Source: Escherichia coli (GTDB lineage: Bacteria; Pseudomonadota; Gammaproteobacteria; Enterobacterales; Enterobacteriaceae). Taken from it: a DNA stretch of 64,000 nucleotides. A program made the position numbers and the translations under genes. The stretch is from NCBI RefSeq assembly GCF_046105845.1, contig NZ_CP151004.1, one strand, 5' to 3'. The notes beneath the pieces are model-generated. The model searched no databases. It saw nothing but the letters and a program-made list of their open reading frames with translations, and was not told where the DNA came from. Shown one piece after another: positions 3,591 through 43,666 of this stretch (within the stretch, counting starts at the first letter, position 1; each line of letters opens with the position of its first letter).

Positions 3591-3996
3591 TTCAAAATTC
3601 GACGGATTAATGATATTTGTCTGATTAATAATCAGACCTGATTAATGTTGGTGTATTTATTACACCAGCATTAATTTTCTTGGGGATGTATCTTCCTGTT
3701 CATTTAAGGTCAACTGCCTGACGTTTCTCTCCGAATATTCCATTATATTAATGTTGACTTGTTAACCAGGTGCGCCCTGTATGCTGGCATCAACTCTCTT
3801 TTAGACTGAACACGCCACTCAGTTTCCTCCCTTTGCGACGCAGCCTGCATTTACACTCAAACGGTTAAGATGATAAATGTGGTAAATCTGTTGGTACTGA
3901 CATAAAAACGTTTACGTCACAGGAACGGCCTGATCCACCGGTAACCCCATCGCCGACGTTCGAGTGCCAGTTAGAGTAACGCGCACAGATGACTGA

Positions 3997-4221
3997 ATGC
4001 AGTGCCCTGGCAAAGAGGCCATCGTTCCTGTGACAACTGGCAGTCTTCGTTTAACTTCACTTAATTTGGCTCTTAGGGGGCTTACCGGACAGATGACGTA
4101 CTTACACCTGTTTAATTTTTCATCACTTATTGGGATGAACACCCATAACCATTTTGTGCGGCATGTTAATCCATTAAAACACCTTACTGATTGGCAAATC
4201 ATCTTTAATTATGACTCATGA
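3997..4221 (+). CDS. small hypothetical protein (occupies the position of K-12 ykgL)
   Basis: 74-aa ORF between ykgO and ecpR, called by position and size only. An antisense ORF overlaps it; weak call. Confidence 0.25.
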   Translation: MQCPGKEAIVPVTTGSLRLTSLNLALRGLTGQMTYLHLFNFSSLIGMNTHNHFVRHVNPLKHLTDWQIIFNYDS

Positions 4222-34765: not shown

Positions 34766-34801
34766 ATTTCAGGGTTTGAGAAATGCGTAAAGATTCAGCA
34801 T

Positions 34802-35500
34802 CTAGCGCGTTCGCTGCGAATGCACCTGCTGCTTATCCAGCTTTTGCACCAGCGGCTGCACCACTTTATCCCCATGCTGACCAAAGTATTGATACAGCGT
34901 ATCGGACGCACTTTTGGTCAGCACCATAATCTCAATGCGTCGGTTGCCCGCGCTTTGCGGATTTTTCGCGTCCAGCAGCATCTGGTCCGCCATCGCGCTC
35001 ACCTGCATCACTTTATCTTCCGGCATTCCGGCCTCTTCCAGCACCCGACGAGCCGAAAGCGCGCGATCGCCCGAAAGGTTCCAGTTGTTGTAGATATTGT
35101 TTTTGTAGGCCATCGCATCGGTATGCCCGGTAATAATAATTTTGTTATCGAGCGAGTCGAACACTGGCGCGAGCTCCACCAGCAAAGTTTTAAAGAACGG
35201 CATAATCTGTGCGCTGCCGCGTTCAAACATATTGCGGTTCTGGTCATCTTTAATCAGCACGCGCAGTCCCTGGGGAACAATCTCCATCTCCAGATTCGCT
35301 TCCATATGTGCATCACGGGCAATGGTGTTGATACTGGTCGCCAGCTCGCCAAGCTCAGTAGCGGATTTCTTCTTCAGCAGCGCCGTTTTCTCATTGACGT
35401 CACGCGCTTTTTTCTCCGTCTCTTCCGGCACCGCCACGGTGGCAGGTTTTGGCGGATGAGACGGGCTGATTTTATTTAACGGCGACAACCCGCCGCCATT
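34802..35500 (-). pseudogene. lafU: lateral-flagellar MotB-like protein remnant (Flag-2 scar)
   Basis: C-terminal OmpA/MotB-like region (...IITGHTDAMAYKNNIYNNWNLSGDRALSARRVLEEAGMPEDKV...NRRIEIMVL...) with no N-terminal TM anchor; the 5' part of the annotated ORF is merely antisense to the lfhA fragment. 5' boundary approximate. Confidence 0.6.
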
Positions 35501-35539
35501 GAAAATCGACTGCCCGTGCAGCGCGGCGATAATGCTTTC

Positions 35540-37271
35540 ACGCTCGGATTTACTGACGCTGTTGACAATCAACTTTATCGTCGTCACCAAAGGGGCCGAG
35601 CGTATTTCCGAGGTTTCTGCCCGCTTTACCTTAGACGCGATGCCCGGTAAACAGATGGCGATTGACGCCGATCTTAACGCTGGGTTGATCAACCAGGCGC
35701 AGGCGCAAACCCGGCGTAAAGATGTTGCCAGCGAGGCCGATTTCTACGGCGCGATGGACGGGGCATCGAAGTTTGTGCGCGGGGACGCCATCGCCGGGAT
35801 GATGATTCTGGCGATCAACCTGATCGGCGGCGTCTGTATCGGCATCTTCAAATACAACCTGAGCGCCGACGCCGCCTTCCAGCAGTATGTGCTGATGACC
35901 ATCGGCGACGGGCTGGTGGCGCAGATCCCGTCCCTGCTGCTCTCCACCGCGGCGGCAATTATCGTCACCCGCGTCAGCGACAATGGCGATATCGCCCATG
36001 ACGTGCGCCACCAGCTGCTGGCAAGCCCGTCGGTGCTCTACACCGCCACCGGGATCATGTTTGTGCTGGCGGTGGTGCCGGGGATGCCGCATCTGCCATT
36101 TTTGCTGTTCAGCGCCCTGCTGGGTTTTACCGGCTGGCGGATGAGCAAACGCCCGCAGGCGGCGGAGGCGGAGGAGAAAAGCCTCGAAACGCTGACCCGC
36201 ACCATCACCGAAACCAGCGAGCAACAGGTCAGTTGGGAGACTATTCCGCTGATCGAACCCATCAGTTTAAGCCTCGGTTACAAACTGGTGGCGCTGGTCG
36301 ATAAAGCGCAGGGTAACCCACTCACCCAGCGTATTCGCGGCGTGCGGCAAGTGATATCCGACGGCAACGGCGTGCTGCTGCCGGAGATCCGTATTCGGGA
36401 AAACTTCCGCCTCAAGCCCAACCAGTACGCCATATTCATCAACGGCATTAAGGCCGATGAAGCGGATATTCCGGCGGATAAACTGATGGCCCTGCCCTCC
36501 AGCGAAACCTACGGCGAGATTGACGGCGTGCTGGGGAACGACCCGGCGTACGGGATGCCGGTCACCTGGATTCAGCCTGCGCAGAAAGCGAAGGCGCTGA
36601 ATATGGGGTATCAGGTGATCGACAGCGCCAGCGTGATTGCCACCCATGTGAACAAGATTGTCCGCAGCTATATTCCTGATTTGTTTAACTATGACGATAT
36701 TACTCAGCTGCATAACCGTTTGTCGTCGATGGCACCGCGACTGGCGGAAGATTTGAGCGCGGCGCTCAATTACAGCCAGTTGCTGAAAGTGTACCGGGCG
36801 CTACTGACTGAAGGCGTTTCCCTACGCGATATCGTCACCATCGCCACCGTGCTGGTCGCCAGTAGCACAGTGACCAAAGATCATATTCTGCTGGCAGCTG
36901 ATGTGCGCCTGGCGCTACGGCGCAGCATTACCCATCCGCTCGTTCGCAAGCAGGAGCTGACGGTGTATACGCTGAATAATGAGCTGGAAAATCTGCTGAC
37001 CAACGTGGTGAATCAGGCGCAACAGGCCGGCAAAGTGATGCTCGACAGCGTGCCGGTGGACCCGAATATGCTTAACCAGTTCCAGAGTACGATGCCACAG
37101 GTGAAGGAGCAGATGAAAGCGGCGGGGAAAGACCCGGTGCTGCTGGTGCCGCCGCAACTGCGTCCATTGCTGGCGCGCTATGCAAGGTTGTTTGCGCCGG
37201 GGCTGCATGTGCTGTCGTATAACGAAGTGCCGGATGAGCTGGAGTTGAAGATTATGGGGGCGCTGAGTTGA
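35540..37271 (+). pseudogene. lfhA: FlhA-family export-gate protein, N-terminally truncated (Flag-2 scar)
   Basis: Reading frame carries FlhA motifs (VVTKGAERISEVSARFTLDAMPGKQMAIDADLNAG) but starts inside the membrane domain with no proper N-terminus or RBS; overlaps the lafU remnant. 5' boundary approximate. Confidence 0.65.
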
Positions 37272-37307
37272 TGCCTTTTAAGAAACACAATACGATGACA
37301 TCAATTT

Positions 37308-37703
37308 ATGACGTCAGGGATTGATAAGATGATGAAAACGCGTTTATTAATATCTCAAGCATCGAACATTATCACCATTAAAGGTCAACCAGCCGCAGTG
37401 ACATTTGAAGCCGATATCAACGCATTTCGCGGCAAATTTCTCAATGTAAATGGTTATTGCGACTTTGTAGCGACAAGCATTGAGGCGTTATACCGGGAAG
37501 GTGAAAGTGCGCTGGATGAGTGGATGGCGGATTGTGAAGAGGACGGCATTGCCCCTTTTCGTGAAGAAGAGCAAAAACGCCTGACGCTTCGTGTTCCTCA
37601 TCACATCGATTCACGACTGACCATTGTCGCCAGACAACATTCCATTTCAAAAAATCAGCTCATTGTTGATGTATTAGAACGTGAGTTTTCATCCCAGATG
37701 TAA
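37308..37703 (+). CDS. HicB-like antitoxin-fold protein with C-terminal ribbon-helix-helix
   Basis: 131 aa; the C-terminus (KRLTLRVPHHIDSRLTIVARQHSISKNQLIVDVLEREF) looks like a CopG/Arc-type RHH; the N-terminal half resembles the HicB fold only loosely. Followed by a clear terminator. Confidence 0.45.
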   Translation: MTSGIDKMMKTRLLISQASNIITIKGQPAAVTFEADINAFRGKFLNVNGYCDFVATSIEALYREGESALDEWMADCEEDGIAPFREEEQKRLTLRVPHHIDSRLTIVARQHSISKNQLIVDVLEREFSSQM

Positions 37704-37708
37704 ACAGG

Positions 37709-37737
37709 TCGGATGCCGTGTGGCATCCGATTTTTTT
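37709..37737 (+). terminator. rho-independent terminator
   Basis: TCGGATGCC-GTGT-GGCATCCGA followed by TTTTTTT, 6 bp after the stop of the 131-aa gene. Confidence 0.6.
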
Positions 37738-37759
37738 CCTGATCGTCAGTATTCTCCGT

Positions 37760-38518
37760 TTACAAAATCGTCTCTTCCGTCAAAATCCTGCGCGCGCCTA
37801 AAAAATGATCCTGCCAGAAAGGCTCAGCTAACCGACTTACCCGAATGGTTTCCCCCGTGCGCGGCGACTCGATAAACTGACCGTCTCCCAGATACACGCC
37901 CATATGATCGGCTATCTCGCGGCTGTGGATATGGAAAAACAGCAAATCTCCCCGGCGCAGGTCGTTGTTCGCCACAATCGTTGCCCGATGGTAGTGATAC
38001 ATCTCATTAGCCGTACGCGGGAGCTTCGCCTCGAGGATCTTGTTGTAGGCATAAAAAACCAACCCGCTACAGTCGAAGCCTTGATCAGGCCGCGTGCCGC
38101 CCCAGACGTAAGGTTTGCCAAGCTGCTGCTCCAGGCGGTGAATCGCCACTTCGGTGATGTTGTGTAGATGGTCGCTGCTTAAGAAATGGTTGTTCTCCGC
38201 CAGCGCCTGCCAGCGTCTGTCACTCGCCTTGAGCGGCGCAGGAAACCATTCTGGATGCTGTTTTATCTGTTCGCGGTTGTGCTGGCGCAGCGCCTTTCTG
38301 CTTTCGGCATTGCCTTCCACAATGTAGCTGGCCTGCTTTTTCAGATGGGTTTGGTACTGTTTTAATAAACGCGCCCGGTTTTGCATCCGCTGGCGGGCGG
38401 CGTAGCTGAAAGAGATATGTGATGTGGTGGCGCTGGCGAGTAAAGGGAGCAAAACGCATAACGAAAACACGCCTGGATGCAGAAATCTGCCGTGAAAGAA
38501 CGAAGACATGAAGGACAT
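37760..38518 (-). CDS. yafL: NlpC/P60 (C40) family peptidase lipoprotein
   Basis: C-terminal NlpC/P60 signature (FDCSGLVFYAY ... HMGVYLG); N-terminal signal/lipoprotein-like region; start may be the second Met. Confidence 0.85.
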   Translation of the reverse strand: MSFMSSFFHGRFLHPGVFSLCVLLPLLASATTSHISFSYAARQRMQNRARLLKQYQTHLKKQASYIVEGNAESRKALRQHNREQIKQHPEWFPAPLKASDRRWQALAENNHFLSSDHLHNITEVAIHRLEQQLGKPYVWGGTRPDQGFDCSGLVFYAYNKILEAKLPRTANEMYHYHRATIVANNDLRRGDLLFFHIHSREIADHMGVYLGDGQFIESPRTGETIRVSRLAEPFWQDHFLGARRILTEETIL

Positions 38519-38809
38519 AAACTAGCTGAATGAAGGAGAGAATTTTAAAAGGTTGGGGGAGTAAACGGGATTATTAATTGCTTATTTGCATATTAGTTAC
38601 GAGGTTTCATAATCTTAGGAAATAAGTGATACATGCGCTTTTCGGACTAATGAAAACTGCCCCTGTGCTAAATTTGTAAACCCTGCGCCGACAGGCTTGC
38701 GTAAAACTCTTTTGGTGATAATGTGAGCCTTCCAAATCCAGACTATTCCGATTTGGGATCCATTTTGCCGTCCTGGCGTGTGTAACCGTTTTATCAAGGA
38801 ATAAGCAGT

Positions 38810-39550
38810 ATGCGTAAAATCGCATTAATTCTTGCGATGTTGTTGATCCCGTGCGTTTCGTTTGCCGGTTTGCTGGGCAGCAGTAGCTCAACCACGCCAG
38901 TGAGCAAAGAGTATAAGCAGCAGTTGATGGGATCCCCTGTCTACATCCAGATCTTCAAGGAAGAACGTACGCTCGATCTCTACGTCAAAATGGGCGAGCA
39001 ATATCAGCTGCTCGACAGTTATAAAATCTGTAAATATTCCGGCGGCTTAGGGCCAAAACAGCGTCAGGGCGATTTCAAAAGCCCGGAAGGGTTTTATAGC
39101 GTCCAGCGTAATCAGTTAAAACCAGACAGCCGTTACTACAAAGCAATTAATATTGGATTCCCCAATGCCTATGACCGTGCGCATGGTTATGAAGGGAAAT
39201 ACCTGATGATCCACGGCGATTGTGTTTCCATCGGCTGCTACGCGATGACCAATCAGGGTATTGATGAGATCTTCCAGTTCGTTACTGGTGCGCTGGTGTT
39301 TGGTCAGCCGAGCGTGCAAGTGAGTATTTACCCGTTCCGCATGACCGACGCCAATATGAAGCGCCATAAGTATTCCAACTTTAAGGACTTCTGGGAGCAA
39401 CTGAAACCGGGCTACGACTACTTTGAGCAAACCCGTAAGCCACCGACCGTTTCTGTGGTCAATGGCCGTTACGTGGTCAGCAAGCCGTTAAGCCACGAAG
39501 TTGTGCAACCACAGCTGGCATCAAACTACACGCTCCCCGAGGCAAAATAA
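38810..39550 (+). CDS. yafK: L,D-transpeptidase-fold periplasmic protein YafK
   Basis: 246 aa; signal peptide [19 protein letters not shown]; YkuD-like catalytic region ([14 protein letters not shown]). Confidence 0.85.
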
Positions 39551-41221: not shown

Positions 41222-43666
41222 ATGATGATTTTGAGTATTCTCGCTACGGTTGTCCTGCTCGGCGCGTTGTTCTATCACCGCGTGAGCTTATTTATCAGCA
41301 GTCTGATTTTGCTCGCCTGGACAGCCGCCCTCGGCGTTGCTGGTCTGTGGTCGGCGTGGGTACTGGTGCCTCTGGCCATTATCCTCGTGCCATTTAACTT
41401 TGCGCCTATGCGTAAGTCGATGATTTCCGCGCCGGTATTTCGCGGTTTCCGTAAGGTAATGCCGCCGATGTCGCGCACTGAGAAAGAAGCGATTGATGCG
41501 GGCACCACCTGGTGGGAGGGCGACTTGTTCCAGGGCAAGCCGGACTGGAAAAAGCTGCATAACTATCCGCAGCCGCGCCTGACCGCAGAAGAGCAAGCGT
41601 TTCTCGACGGCCCGGTAGAAGAAGCCTGCCGGATGGCGAATGATTTCCAGATTACTCATGAGATGGCTGATTTGCCGCCGGAGTTGTGGGCGTACCTTAA
41701 AGAGCATCGTTTCTTCGCGATGATCATCAAAAAAGAGTACGGCGGGCTGGAGTTCTCGGCTTATGCCCAATCTCGTGTGCTGCAAAAACTCTCCGGCGTG
41801 AGCGGGATCCTGGCAATTACCGTCGGCGTGCCGAACTCATTAGGCCCGGGCGAGCTACTGCAACATTACGGCACTGATGAGCAGAAAGATCACTATCTGC
41901 CACGTCTGGCGCGTGGTCAGGAGATCCCTTGCTTTGCACTGACCAGCCCGGAAGCGGGTTCCGATGCGGGCGCGATTCCGGACACCGGGATTGTCTGCAT
42001 GGGCGAATGGCAGGGCCAGCAGGTGCTGGGGATGCGTCTGACCTGGAACAAGCGTTACATTACGCTGGCACCGATTGCGACTGTGCTTGGCCTGGCATTT
42101 AAACTCTCCGACCCGGAAAAACTGCTGGGTGGCGCAGAAGATTTAGGTATTACCTGTGCGCTGATCCCGACTACCACGCCGGGCGTGGAAATTGGTCGTC
42201 GCCACTTCCCGCTGAACGTACCGTTCCAGAACGGACCGACGCGAGGTAAAGATGTGTTCGTGCCGATCGATTACATCATCGGCGGGCCGAAAATGGCCGG
42301 GCAAGGCTGGCGGATGCTGGTGGAGTGCCTCTCGGTAGGCCGCGGCATCACCCTGCCTTCCAACTCAACCGGCGGCGTGAAATCGGTAGCGCTGGCAACG
42401 GGTGCGTATGCGCACATCCGCCGTCAGTTCAAAATCTCTATTGGTAAGATGGAAGGGATTGAAGAGCCGCTGGCGCGTATTGCCGGAAACGCTTATGTAA
42501 TGGATGCTGCGGCATCGCTGATTACCTACGGCATTATGCTCGGTGAAAAACCTGCCGTGCTGTCGGCTATCGTTAAGTATCACTGTACCCACCGTGGGCA
42601 GCAGTCGATTATTGATGCGATGGATATCACTGGTGGCAAAGGCATTATGCTCGGGCAGAGCAACTTCCTGGCCCGTGCTTACCAGGGCGCACCGATTGCC
42701 ATCACCGTTGAAGGGGCTAACATTCTGACCCGCAGCATGATGATCTTCGGACAAGGAGCGATTCGTTGCCATCCGTACGTGCTGGAAGAGATGGAAGCGG
42801 CGAAGAACAATGACGTCAACGCGTTCGATAAACTCCTGTTTAAACATATCGGTCACGTCGGTAGCAACAAAGTTCGCAGCTTCTGGCTGGGCCTGACGCG
42901 CGGTTTAACCAGCAGCACGCCAACCGGCGATGCCACTAAACGCTACTATCAGCACCTGAACCGCCTGAGCGCCAACCTCGCCCTGCTTTCTGATGTCTCG
43001 ATGGCTGTGCTGGGCGGCAGCCTGAAACGTCGTGAGCGTATCTCGGCACGTCTGGGGGATATTTTAAGCCAGCTTTACCTCGCCTCTGCCGTTCTGAAGC
43101 GTTATGACGACGAAGGCCGTAATGAAGCCGACCTGCCGCTGGTGCACTGGGGCGTACAGGATGCGCTGTATCAGGCTGAACAGGCGATGGATGATTTACT
43201 GCAAAACTTCCCGAACCGCGTGGTTGCCGGGCTGCTGAATGTGGTGATCTTCCCGACCGGACGTCATTATCTGGCACCTTCTGACAAGCTGGATCATAAG
43301 GTGGCGAAGATTTTACAAGTGCCGAACGCCACCCGTTCACGTATTGGTCGCGGTCAGTACCTGACGCCGAGCGAGCATAACCCGGTTGGTTTACTGGAAG
43401 AGGCGCTGGTGGATGTGATTGCCGCCGACCCAATTCATCAGCGGATCTGTAAAGAGCTGGGTAAAAACCTGCCGTTTACCCGTCTGGATGAACTGGCGCA
43501 CAACGCGCTGGCGAAGGGGCTGATTGATAAAGATGAAGCCGCTATGCTGGTGAAAGCTGAAGAAAGCCGTCTGCGCAGTATTAACGTTGATGACTTTGAT
43601 CCGGAAGAGCTGGCGACGAAGCCGGTAAAGTTGCCGGAGAAAGTGCGGAAAGTTGAAGCCGCGTAA
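41222..43666 (+). CDS. fadE: acyl-CoA dehydrogenase
   Basis: 814 aa from [18 protein letters not shown]...; N-terminal membrane segment then acyl-CoA dehydrogenase domains. Confidence 0.9.

Follow-up and report, generated by a model that had tools for sequence, protein, structure and literature searches.

In about two thirds of Escherichia coli strains, the tnpA-REP gene (rayT) lies between yafL and fhiA (lfhA), whereas hicA and hicB occupy this slot in 24 of 110 strains, most of them B1 strains like IAI1, with no trace of tnpA-REP or of bacterial interspersed mosaic elements (BIMEs) (Ton-Hoang et al., 2012, PMC3333891). The hicAB toxin-antitoxin (TA) modules have been sorted into classes, and autorepression by HicB occurs in the systems studied (Gerdes, 2024, PMC10865869). 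We analyzed a stretch of 64,000 nucleotides of E. coli (contig NZ_CP151004.1), hereafter the window, whose lfhA-yafL slot holds a hicB gene alone. An earlier note on this DNA had described there a 131-aa protein with a HicB-like N-terminal domain and a C-terminal ribbon-helix-helix (RHH) motif, and had wondered whether the gene was a solitary regulator or what is left of a degraded TA pair. It is very probably the antitoxin half of a class 4 hicAB module whose toxin was deleted, and the orphan is most likely a harmless remnant on which constraint has relaxed. The family, the annotation and the replacement of rayT by hicAB are already on record, and the gene is an ordinary leftover of a described system.

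The evidence for this history lies in the comparison with intact alleles. Many strains, H10 among them, have a 92-aa hicA that overlaps a 118-aa hicB by 8 nt between the lfhA remnant and yafL. A blastn search of the window junction against H10 aligned positions 37283-37336 to the hicA leader, its Shine-Dalgarno sequence, its ATG and codons 1 to 3; next come seven bases of unexplained origin, and positions 37344-37367 align to the last hicA bases and the start of hicB. The lost stretch amounts to ~260 bp, beginning at hicA codon 4 and ending shortly before the hicB start, the hicB Shine-Dalgarno sequence included. A further ~40-46 bp are missing, which held the -35 box and the upstream copy of a pair of 21-bp operator-like repeats. 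The old hicB ATG now reads ATT, and four extra nucleotides hold open a frame that runs from the former hicA ATG (37329) into hicB. This fusion adds a 10-residue N-terminal extension, MMKTRLLISQ, whose residues 6-10 have a predicted local distance difference test score (pLDDT) below 50. Judged by this alignment, the gene is the intact antitoxin half of a hicAB cassette, with the toxin gene deleted and the hicA start captured. The degraded hicA that had been suspected beside the gene was thus found, as leader, ATG, three codons and a few 3' bases, and the idea of a survivor of a degraded TA pair gains direct support from these hicA ends kept around the deletion and from the allelic hicA and hicB of 1371 of 5426 genomes. 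The features discussed here and below are the following, all coordinates being those of the window.

35553..37271, plus strand: 3' remnant of lfhA (Flag-2 flhA-like), stop TGA at 37269-37271; "incomplete, missing N-terminus" according to the annotation pipeline PGAP
37268..37296, plus strand: candidate weakened promoter, -35 TTGATG at 37268-37273, 17-nt spacer, -10 TACGAT at 37291-37296
37296..37316, plus strand: single remaining 21-bp operator-like unit TGACATCA-N5-TGACGTCA, overlapping the -10/start-site region; presumed site of the HicB RHH domain
37308..37703, plus strand: longest hicB open reading frame (ORF), between the lfhA remnant and the convergent yafL
37316..37320, plus strand: Shine-Dalgarno-like AGGGA of hicA leader origin, 8 nt before the ATG at 37329 and at the homologous position in the hicA leaders of H10 and Leclercia
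37329..37703, plus strand: orphan hicB coding sequence with the preferred start, 124 aa plus stop
37329..37358, plus strand: deletion junction, with the former hicA start ATG ATG AAA (codons 1-3), 7 nt of filler and the diverged hicA 3' end/hicB start
37359..37562, plus strand: HicB N-terminal domain, partial RNase H-like fold, residues ~11-78
37578..37700, plus strand: C-terminal RHH DNA-binding domain, residues ~84-124
37706..37733, plus strand: intrinsic terminator-like hairpin, 12-pair stem followed by a T-run, 3' of the hicB stop codon
37760..38518, minus strand: yafL (C40 peptidase), right flank, convergent with hicB

On sequence grounds, hicAB is the ancestral state of the slot, because the window retains hicA remnants and because the hicA-hicB architecture is kept in Leclercia and on Salmonella plasmids; the opposite polarity, with hicB alone as the ancestral state, was ruled out by the hicA leader and codon remnants and by the conservation of hicAB in other genera. 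The window haplotype is ~25-30% diverged at silent sites from the hicAB alleles. As a separate observation, one of four otherwise syntenic sequences, a Leclercia-like JGI metagenome contig, carries a hicA of 46 instead of 92 aa and a higB of 68 instead of 107 aa (2730-2870 and 3815-4021 of the compared sequence), both antitoxin genes being full length or nearly so, which is another toxin-first decay.

The slot was surveyed in 5426 complete E. coli genomes, the cognate hicA being sought with blastn in a sensitive ("distant") mode that reaches ~65-70% identity. The rayT gene was present in 3575 genomes (66%) and hicB in 1479, while hicA occurred in 1371 (25%), in one copy each and with at least 95% identity even in the sensitive mode. 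The window-specific junction sequence, which marks the hicB-only state, was found in 108 genomes (2%), and ~7% had none of these three states. As such, rayT, hicAB and hicB-only are mutually exclusive alternatives of the lfhA-yafL slot, in agreement with Ton-Hoang et al. (2012, PMC3333891). Since 1371 and 108 add up to 1479, the two hicB-bearing states appear complementary, and the most economical interpretation is that a cognate hicA is lacking altogether from genomes with the window allele; on these counts, they do not hold the toxin and cognate antitoxin of a functional type II pair. The carriers include ST405-like clinical strains, E. coli C, the guinea-fowl isolate GF4-3 and XJ6.1. The latter has the window-type allele yet an intact Flag-2 locus, so that the loss of hicA was independent of the Flag-2 deletion. 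In E. coli ZH177, the hicA match spans just 64% of the gene.

Within the window, no HicA-like ORF adjoins hicB and none occurs elsewhere in the 64 kb, according to the ORF list and to tblastn, as the earlier note had stated for the immediate neighborhood; the tblastn searches with HicA of H10 and Leclercia, and with a K-12 HicA query, yielded noise only. Similarly, the hicAB cassette had no match in a phage collection. E. coli "plasmid" matches were set aside as megabase records that are in effect chromosomal, and among plasmid matches only Salmonella plasmids hold a related cassette, with ~67% identity.

The protein itself matches the HicB family in Pfam over its C-terminal 50 residues (PF05534, E=2.6e-10). 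An AlphaFold2 model built from 40 homologues (mean pLDDT 89.5) has an N-terminal domain formed by a beta-sheet and a long helix, followed by a strand-helix-helix module. Searched by sequence, the PDB gave nothing significant for either HicB or the H10 HicA, and a fold comparison was needed instead. It retrieved TTHA0281 and Burkholderia pseudomallei HicB for the N-terminal domain, which has the partial RNase H-like fold (beta-beta-beta-alpha-beta), and the RHH proteins CopG/TacA, NikR, ParD and MazE for the C-terminal domain, which is that expected of an RHH-type HicB (PF05534, class 4 hicAB), with just 11-16% identity to solved HicBs. In solved complexes, the N-terminal domain of HicB is the part that binds HicA. 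Both domain assignments of the earlier note were thereby borne out. The adjacent hicA of a hicAB operon is missing from the window and present in the allelic loci of 1371 genomes and of Leclercia. An NCBIfam scan of HicB gave noise only, and a PADLOC scan of HicB, of HicA and of two small overlapping ORFs (37681-37872, plus strand; 37444-37650, minus strand) found no match to a defense family. The H10 hicA (2677-2955 of the compared H10 sequence) encodes 92 aa with a weak Pfam match to HicA_toxin (E=6.4e-7) and no sequence relative in the PDB; it reads GSRRKF where K-12 HicA (GSNHLKL) would have its catalytic histidine.

Four starts may be considered for the orphan gene. The start at 37308 (131 aa), favored by the earlier note, is probably too far upstream and was rejected: it has no Shine-Dalgarno sequence, lies inside the palindrome and is ~12 nt downstream of the -10 box. 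Translation likely begins at 37329, or at 37332 (123 aa), given the ribosome-binding sequence inherited from hicA. RefSeq, which already annotates the gene as "type II toxin-antitoxin system HicB family antitoxin", places the start at the ATA codon at 37350 (117 aa), which PGAP translates as Met in "MSQASN..." (WP_097420904.1, WP_024166466.1, protein cluster P0001). This choice was apparently set by homology to full-length HicB, and it is probably a start-codon mis-annotation, because an ATG with a Shine-Dalgarno sequence sits 21 nt upstream of the ATA.

The full cassettes have a promoter TTGACG-17-TACGAT, called by the scan in H10, and two 21-bp units TGACxxCA-N5-TGACGTCA placed 40 bp apart, one of them over the -35 and the other over the -10/start-site region. 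Two such units, arranged alike, precede the homologue of Leclercia, which encodes a HicB of 66% identity and lies in a different context, next to higBA; the units are likely HicB operators, because this arrangement is conserved across genera. In the window, the -10 box is homologous to that of the hicAB promoter and the original -35 TTGACG is deleted, its replacement TTGATG overlapping the lfhA stop codon. The 21-bp unit has one match in the 64 kb vs. none in 100 shuffles. Every hicB-only locus retains one unit, the downstream one, and no unit occurs at the rayT locus of K-12. The TGACGTCA palindrome also stands alone at 35395-35402 and 42811-42818, outside any 21-bp unit, and the total of three in the window is compatible with chance, 12 of 100 shuffles having at least as many. 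At the other end of the gene, the terminator that had been noticed is indeed present, as a hairpin with a T-run; the hairpin is conserved in the hicAB alleles, but there its T-run is interrupted. The single match of an Rfam scan of 36800-38900 was a sub-threshold chance match on this terminator.

Taken together, homology, deletion anatomy, fold, population distribution and the complementary counts suggest the following course of events. A class 4 hicAB module takes the place of the rayT REPtron in the slot of about one quarter of E. coli genomes, and one diverged cassette lineage lost hicA, the hicB Shine-Dalgarno sequence, the -35 box and one operator-like repeat, so that HicB would now be translated from the initiation site of the toxin, with a short disordered extension. 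We infer from what is known of the family that a little HicB is most likely still produced, with the weakened promoter and the captured hicA initiation site, that it would oligomerize through its RHH domain, and that it would bind the one unit left over the -10/start-site region and repress its own weakened promoter. Without its cognate toxin, HicB would have nothing to neutralize, although an incoming HicA of the same family could be incidentally neutralized.

The main competing explanation is that the orphan is kept by selection, either as an anti-addiction or immunity function against hicAB arriving on plasmids or with recombining DNA, or as a co-opted RHH transcription factor, the fusion to the hicA start being then an adaptive rescue of expression. 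At first sight, the ratio of non-synonymous to synonymous divergence (dN/dS) favors it, since pairwise values for hicB are 0.012 vs. H10 and 0.05-0.12 among orphan alleles. However, the lfhA and lafU Flag-2 deletion fragments, which are regarded as pseudogenes (PMC6993521), served as a control and gave equally low values among Flag-2-deleted strains (0.003-0.07, for a synonymous divergence, dS, of 0.05-0.25), which may reflect imported or pre-deletion variation; the housekeeping neighbor dpaA has a dS of just 0.01-0.10. The polymorphism table of the locus moreover consists of two deep haplotypes and mosaic recombinants, and in GF4-3 the orphan junction is joined to an H10-type hicB body. With remnant controls equally low and the locus mosaic by recombination, a low dN/dS cannot prove selection after the deletion, and it was discarded as such a proof. 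The substitutions private to orphan lineages, five synonymous and five non-synonymous, contrast with the 19 silent changes and the single replacement that are fixed between the two haplotypes (Fisher p=0.009), and this small sample hints at relaxed constraint.

Several points nevertheless weigh against the view of a harmless leftover. The 5:5 count is small and not significantly different from neutrality or mild constraint. None of the five hicB-only alleles read, those of the window, XJ6.1, 7/2, E. coli C and GF4-3, has a disrupted ORF; they represent lineages among the 108 genomes, and their frame is open although the junction segment has diverged by 2.5-3.3%. Capturing the hicA ATG in frame took a G-to-T change that opened a TGA, four additional nucleotides and the deletion itself. 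The window-type haplotype, found in the orphan state only, differs from the hicAB alleles by 19 silent changes and only one amino acid. Finally, the promoter scan did not call the window promoter, which has 8 of 12 consensus matches. The points on the gene itself could equally mean continued selection for function, and the related cassettes on Salmonella plasmids, together with reports of solitary hicB genes (PMC10865869) and of orphan antitoxins (PMC7192599), fit with such a role. On the other side stand the failed dN/dS control, the 5:5 ratio of private changes, the loss of one operator unit and of the -35 box, the single operator-like unit of the window with no other target seen there, and the absence of the cassette from the phage collection. 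On balance, this explanation appears unlikely, as does in general the maintenance of the orphan for a function; a purifying selection acting on a toxin-less HicB across several phylogroups, for chromosomal immunity against hicAB recombining into the slot or for a co-opted RHH regulator, seems slightly more doubtful still.

A trans-encoded pair, in which HicB would partner a HicA encoded elsewhere such as the K-12-type HicA (YncN) or another divergent HicA, is most improbable: although most E. coli carry the K-12-type hicAB, unrelated to the slot cassette, and the protein-level HicA search covers the 64-kb window only, the cognate hicA is present in exactly 1371 genomes, once in each, complementary to the 108 hicB-only among 1479, the window has no HicA-like ORF, and recognition between antitoxin and toxin is normally cognate, K-12 HicA having its own helix-turn-helix (HTH)-type HicB.

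The neighborhood of the orphan deserves some remarks of its own. The window is E. coli DNA with a K-12-type Flag-2 deletion, in which the match to a Flag-2-intact strain is lost upstream of ~35565; an lfhA remnant on the left, yafL on the right and rayT at the same position in K-12 had all been correctly recognized in the earlier note. The lafU remnant (34802-35587, minus strand) and the lfhA remnant (35553-37271, plus strand) have no internal stop in 6 of 7 strains, and the third of lfhA that adjoins the scar shows 35 synonymous and 0 non-synonymous differences between the window and H10. Either the Flag-2 remnants are functional, or the deletion between direct repeats, such as those reported at the Flag-2 deletion ends (PMC6993521), recurred or spread into old haplotypes. 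The whole lafU'-lfhA'-hicB-yafL segment (~34800-38500) is hyper-divergent among E. coli strains (dS 0.1-0.35) and visibly mosaic, in contrast to the adjacent dpaA region (38810-39550, dS 0.01-0.10). The N-terminus of yafL, in the signal-peptide region, is a different sequence in the window and in 7/2. K-12, H10, E. coli C and GF4-3 have another TA pair between yafL and dpaA, dinJ-yafQ, which is missing from the window (38519-38809), 7/2 and XJ6.1.

The new elements are the base-level route to an orphan antitoxin, by which the toxin gene and one operator disappeared and the toxin start codon was joined to the antitoxin, the census of four slot states in 5426 genomes, including 2% of hicB-only, and the probable start-codon error in RefSeq. 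Beyond annotation, their significance is small. E. coli C and the ST405 strains would be convenient natural backgrounds for the question of orphan-antitoxin immunity.

Among the closest known systems is the hicAB cassette of IAI1 and other B1 strains at yafL-fhiA(lfhA) (PMC3333891), with which the window shares the slot, a hicB of 96% protein identity, the leader, the -10 box, an operator-like unit and the downstream hairpin. It differs by keeping only 3 hicA codons, by the loss of the upstream operator unit and -35 box, by the use of the hicA initiation site instead of the destroyed hicB Shine-Dalgarno sequence and ATG, and by silent sites that are ~25-30% diverged. The two-domain HicB, the palindromic repeats in the promoter and, in the intact alleles, a hicA upstream of and overlapping hicB are also those of class 4 hicAB (Yersinia pestis HicA3-HicB3, 4p78; B. 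pseudomallei, 6g1c and 6g1n; Streptococcus pneumoniae HicBA, 5yrz), whereas this subfamily has a long HicA (92 aa) with a weak Pfam HicA match, and the window has no toxin. On the contrary, the HicAB of E. coli K-12 (YncN/YdcQ; PDB 6u0i) has an HTH-type, class 3 HicB, another locus and an intact toxin (PMC10865869). The K-12 rayT (tnpA-REP) REPtron occupies the identical lfhA-yafL slot with an unrelated gene and mechanism and no shared operator-like unit; its Y1 transposase gene rayT is there in K-12 and missing between lfhA and yafL in the window. Like the orphan antitoxins surveyed in Klebsiella pneumoniae (PMC7192599) and the solitary hicB of Methanosarcina (PMC10865869), the gene is a type II-derived antitoxin without an adjacent toxin; unlike in those cases, the deletion behind it can be retraced base by base, by comparison with the intact alleles that other E. 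coli carry at this locus.
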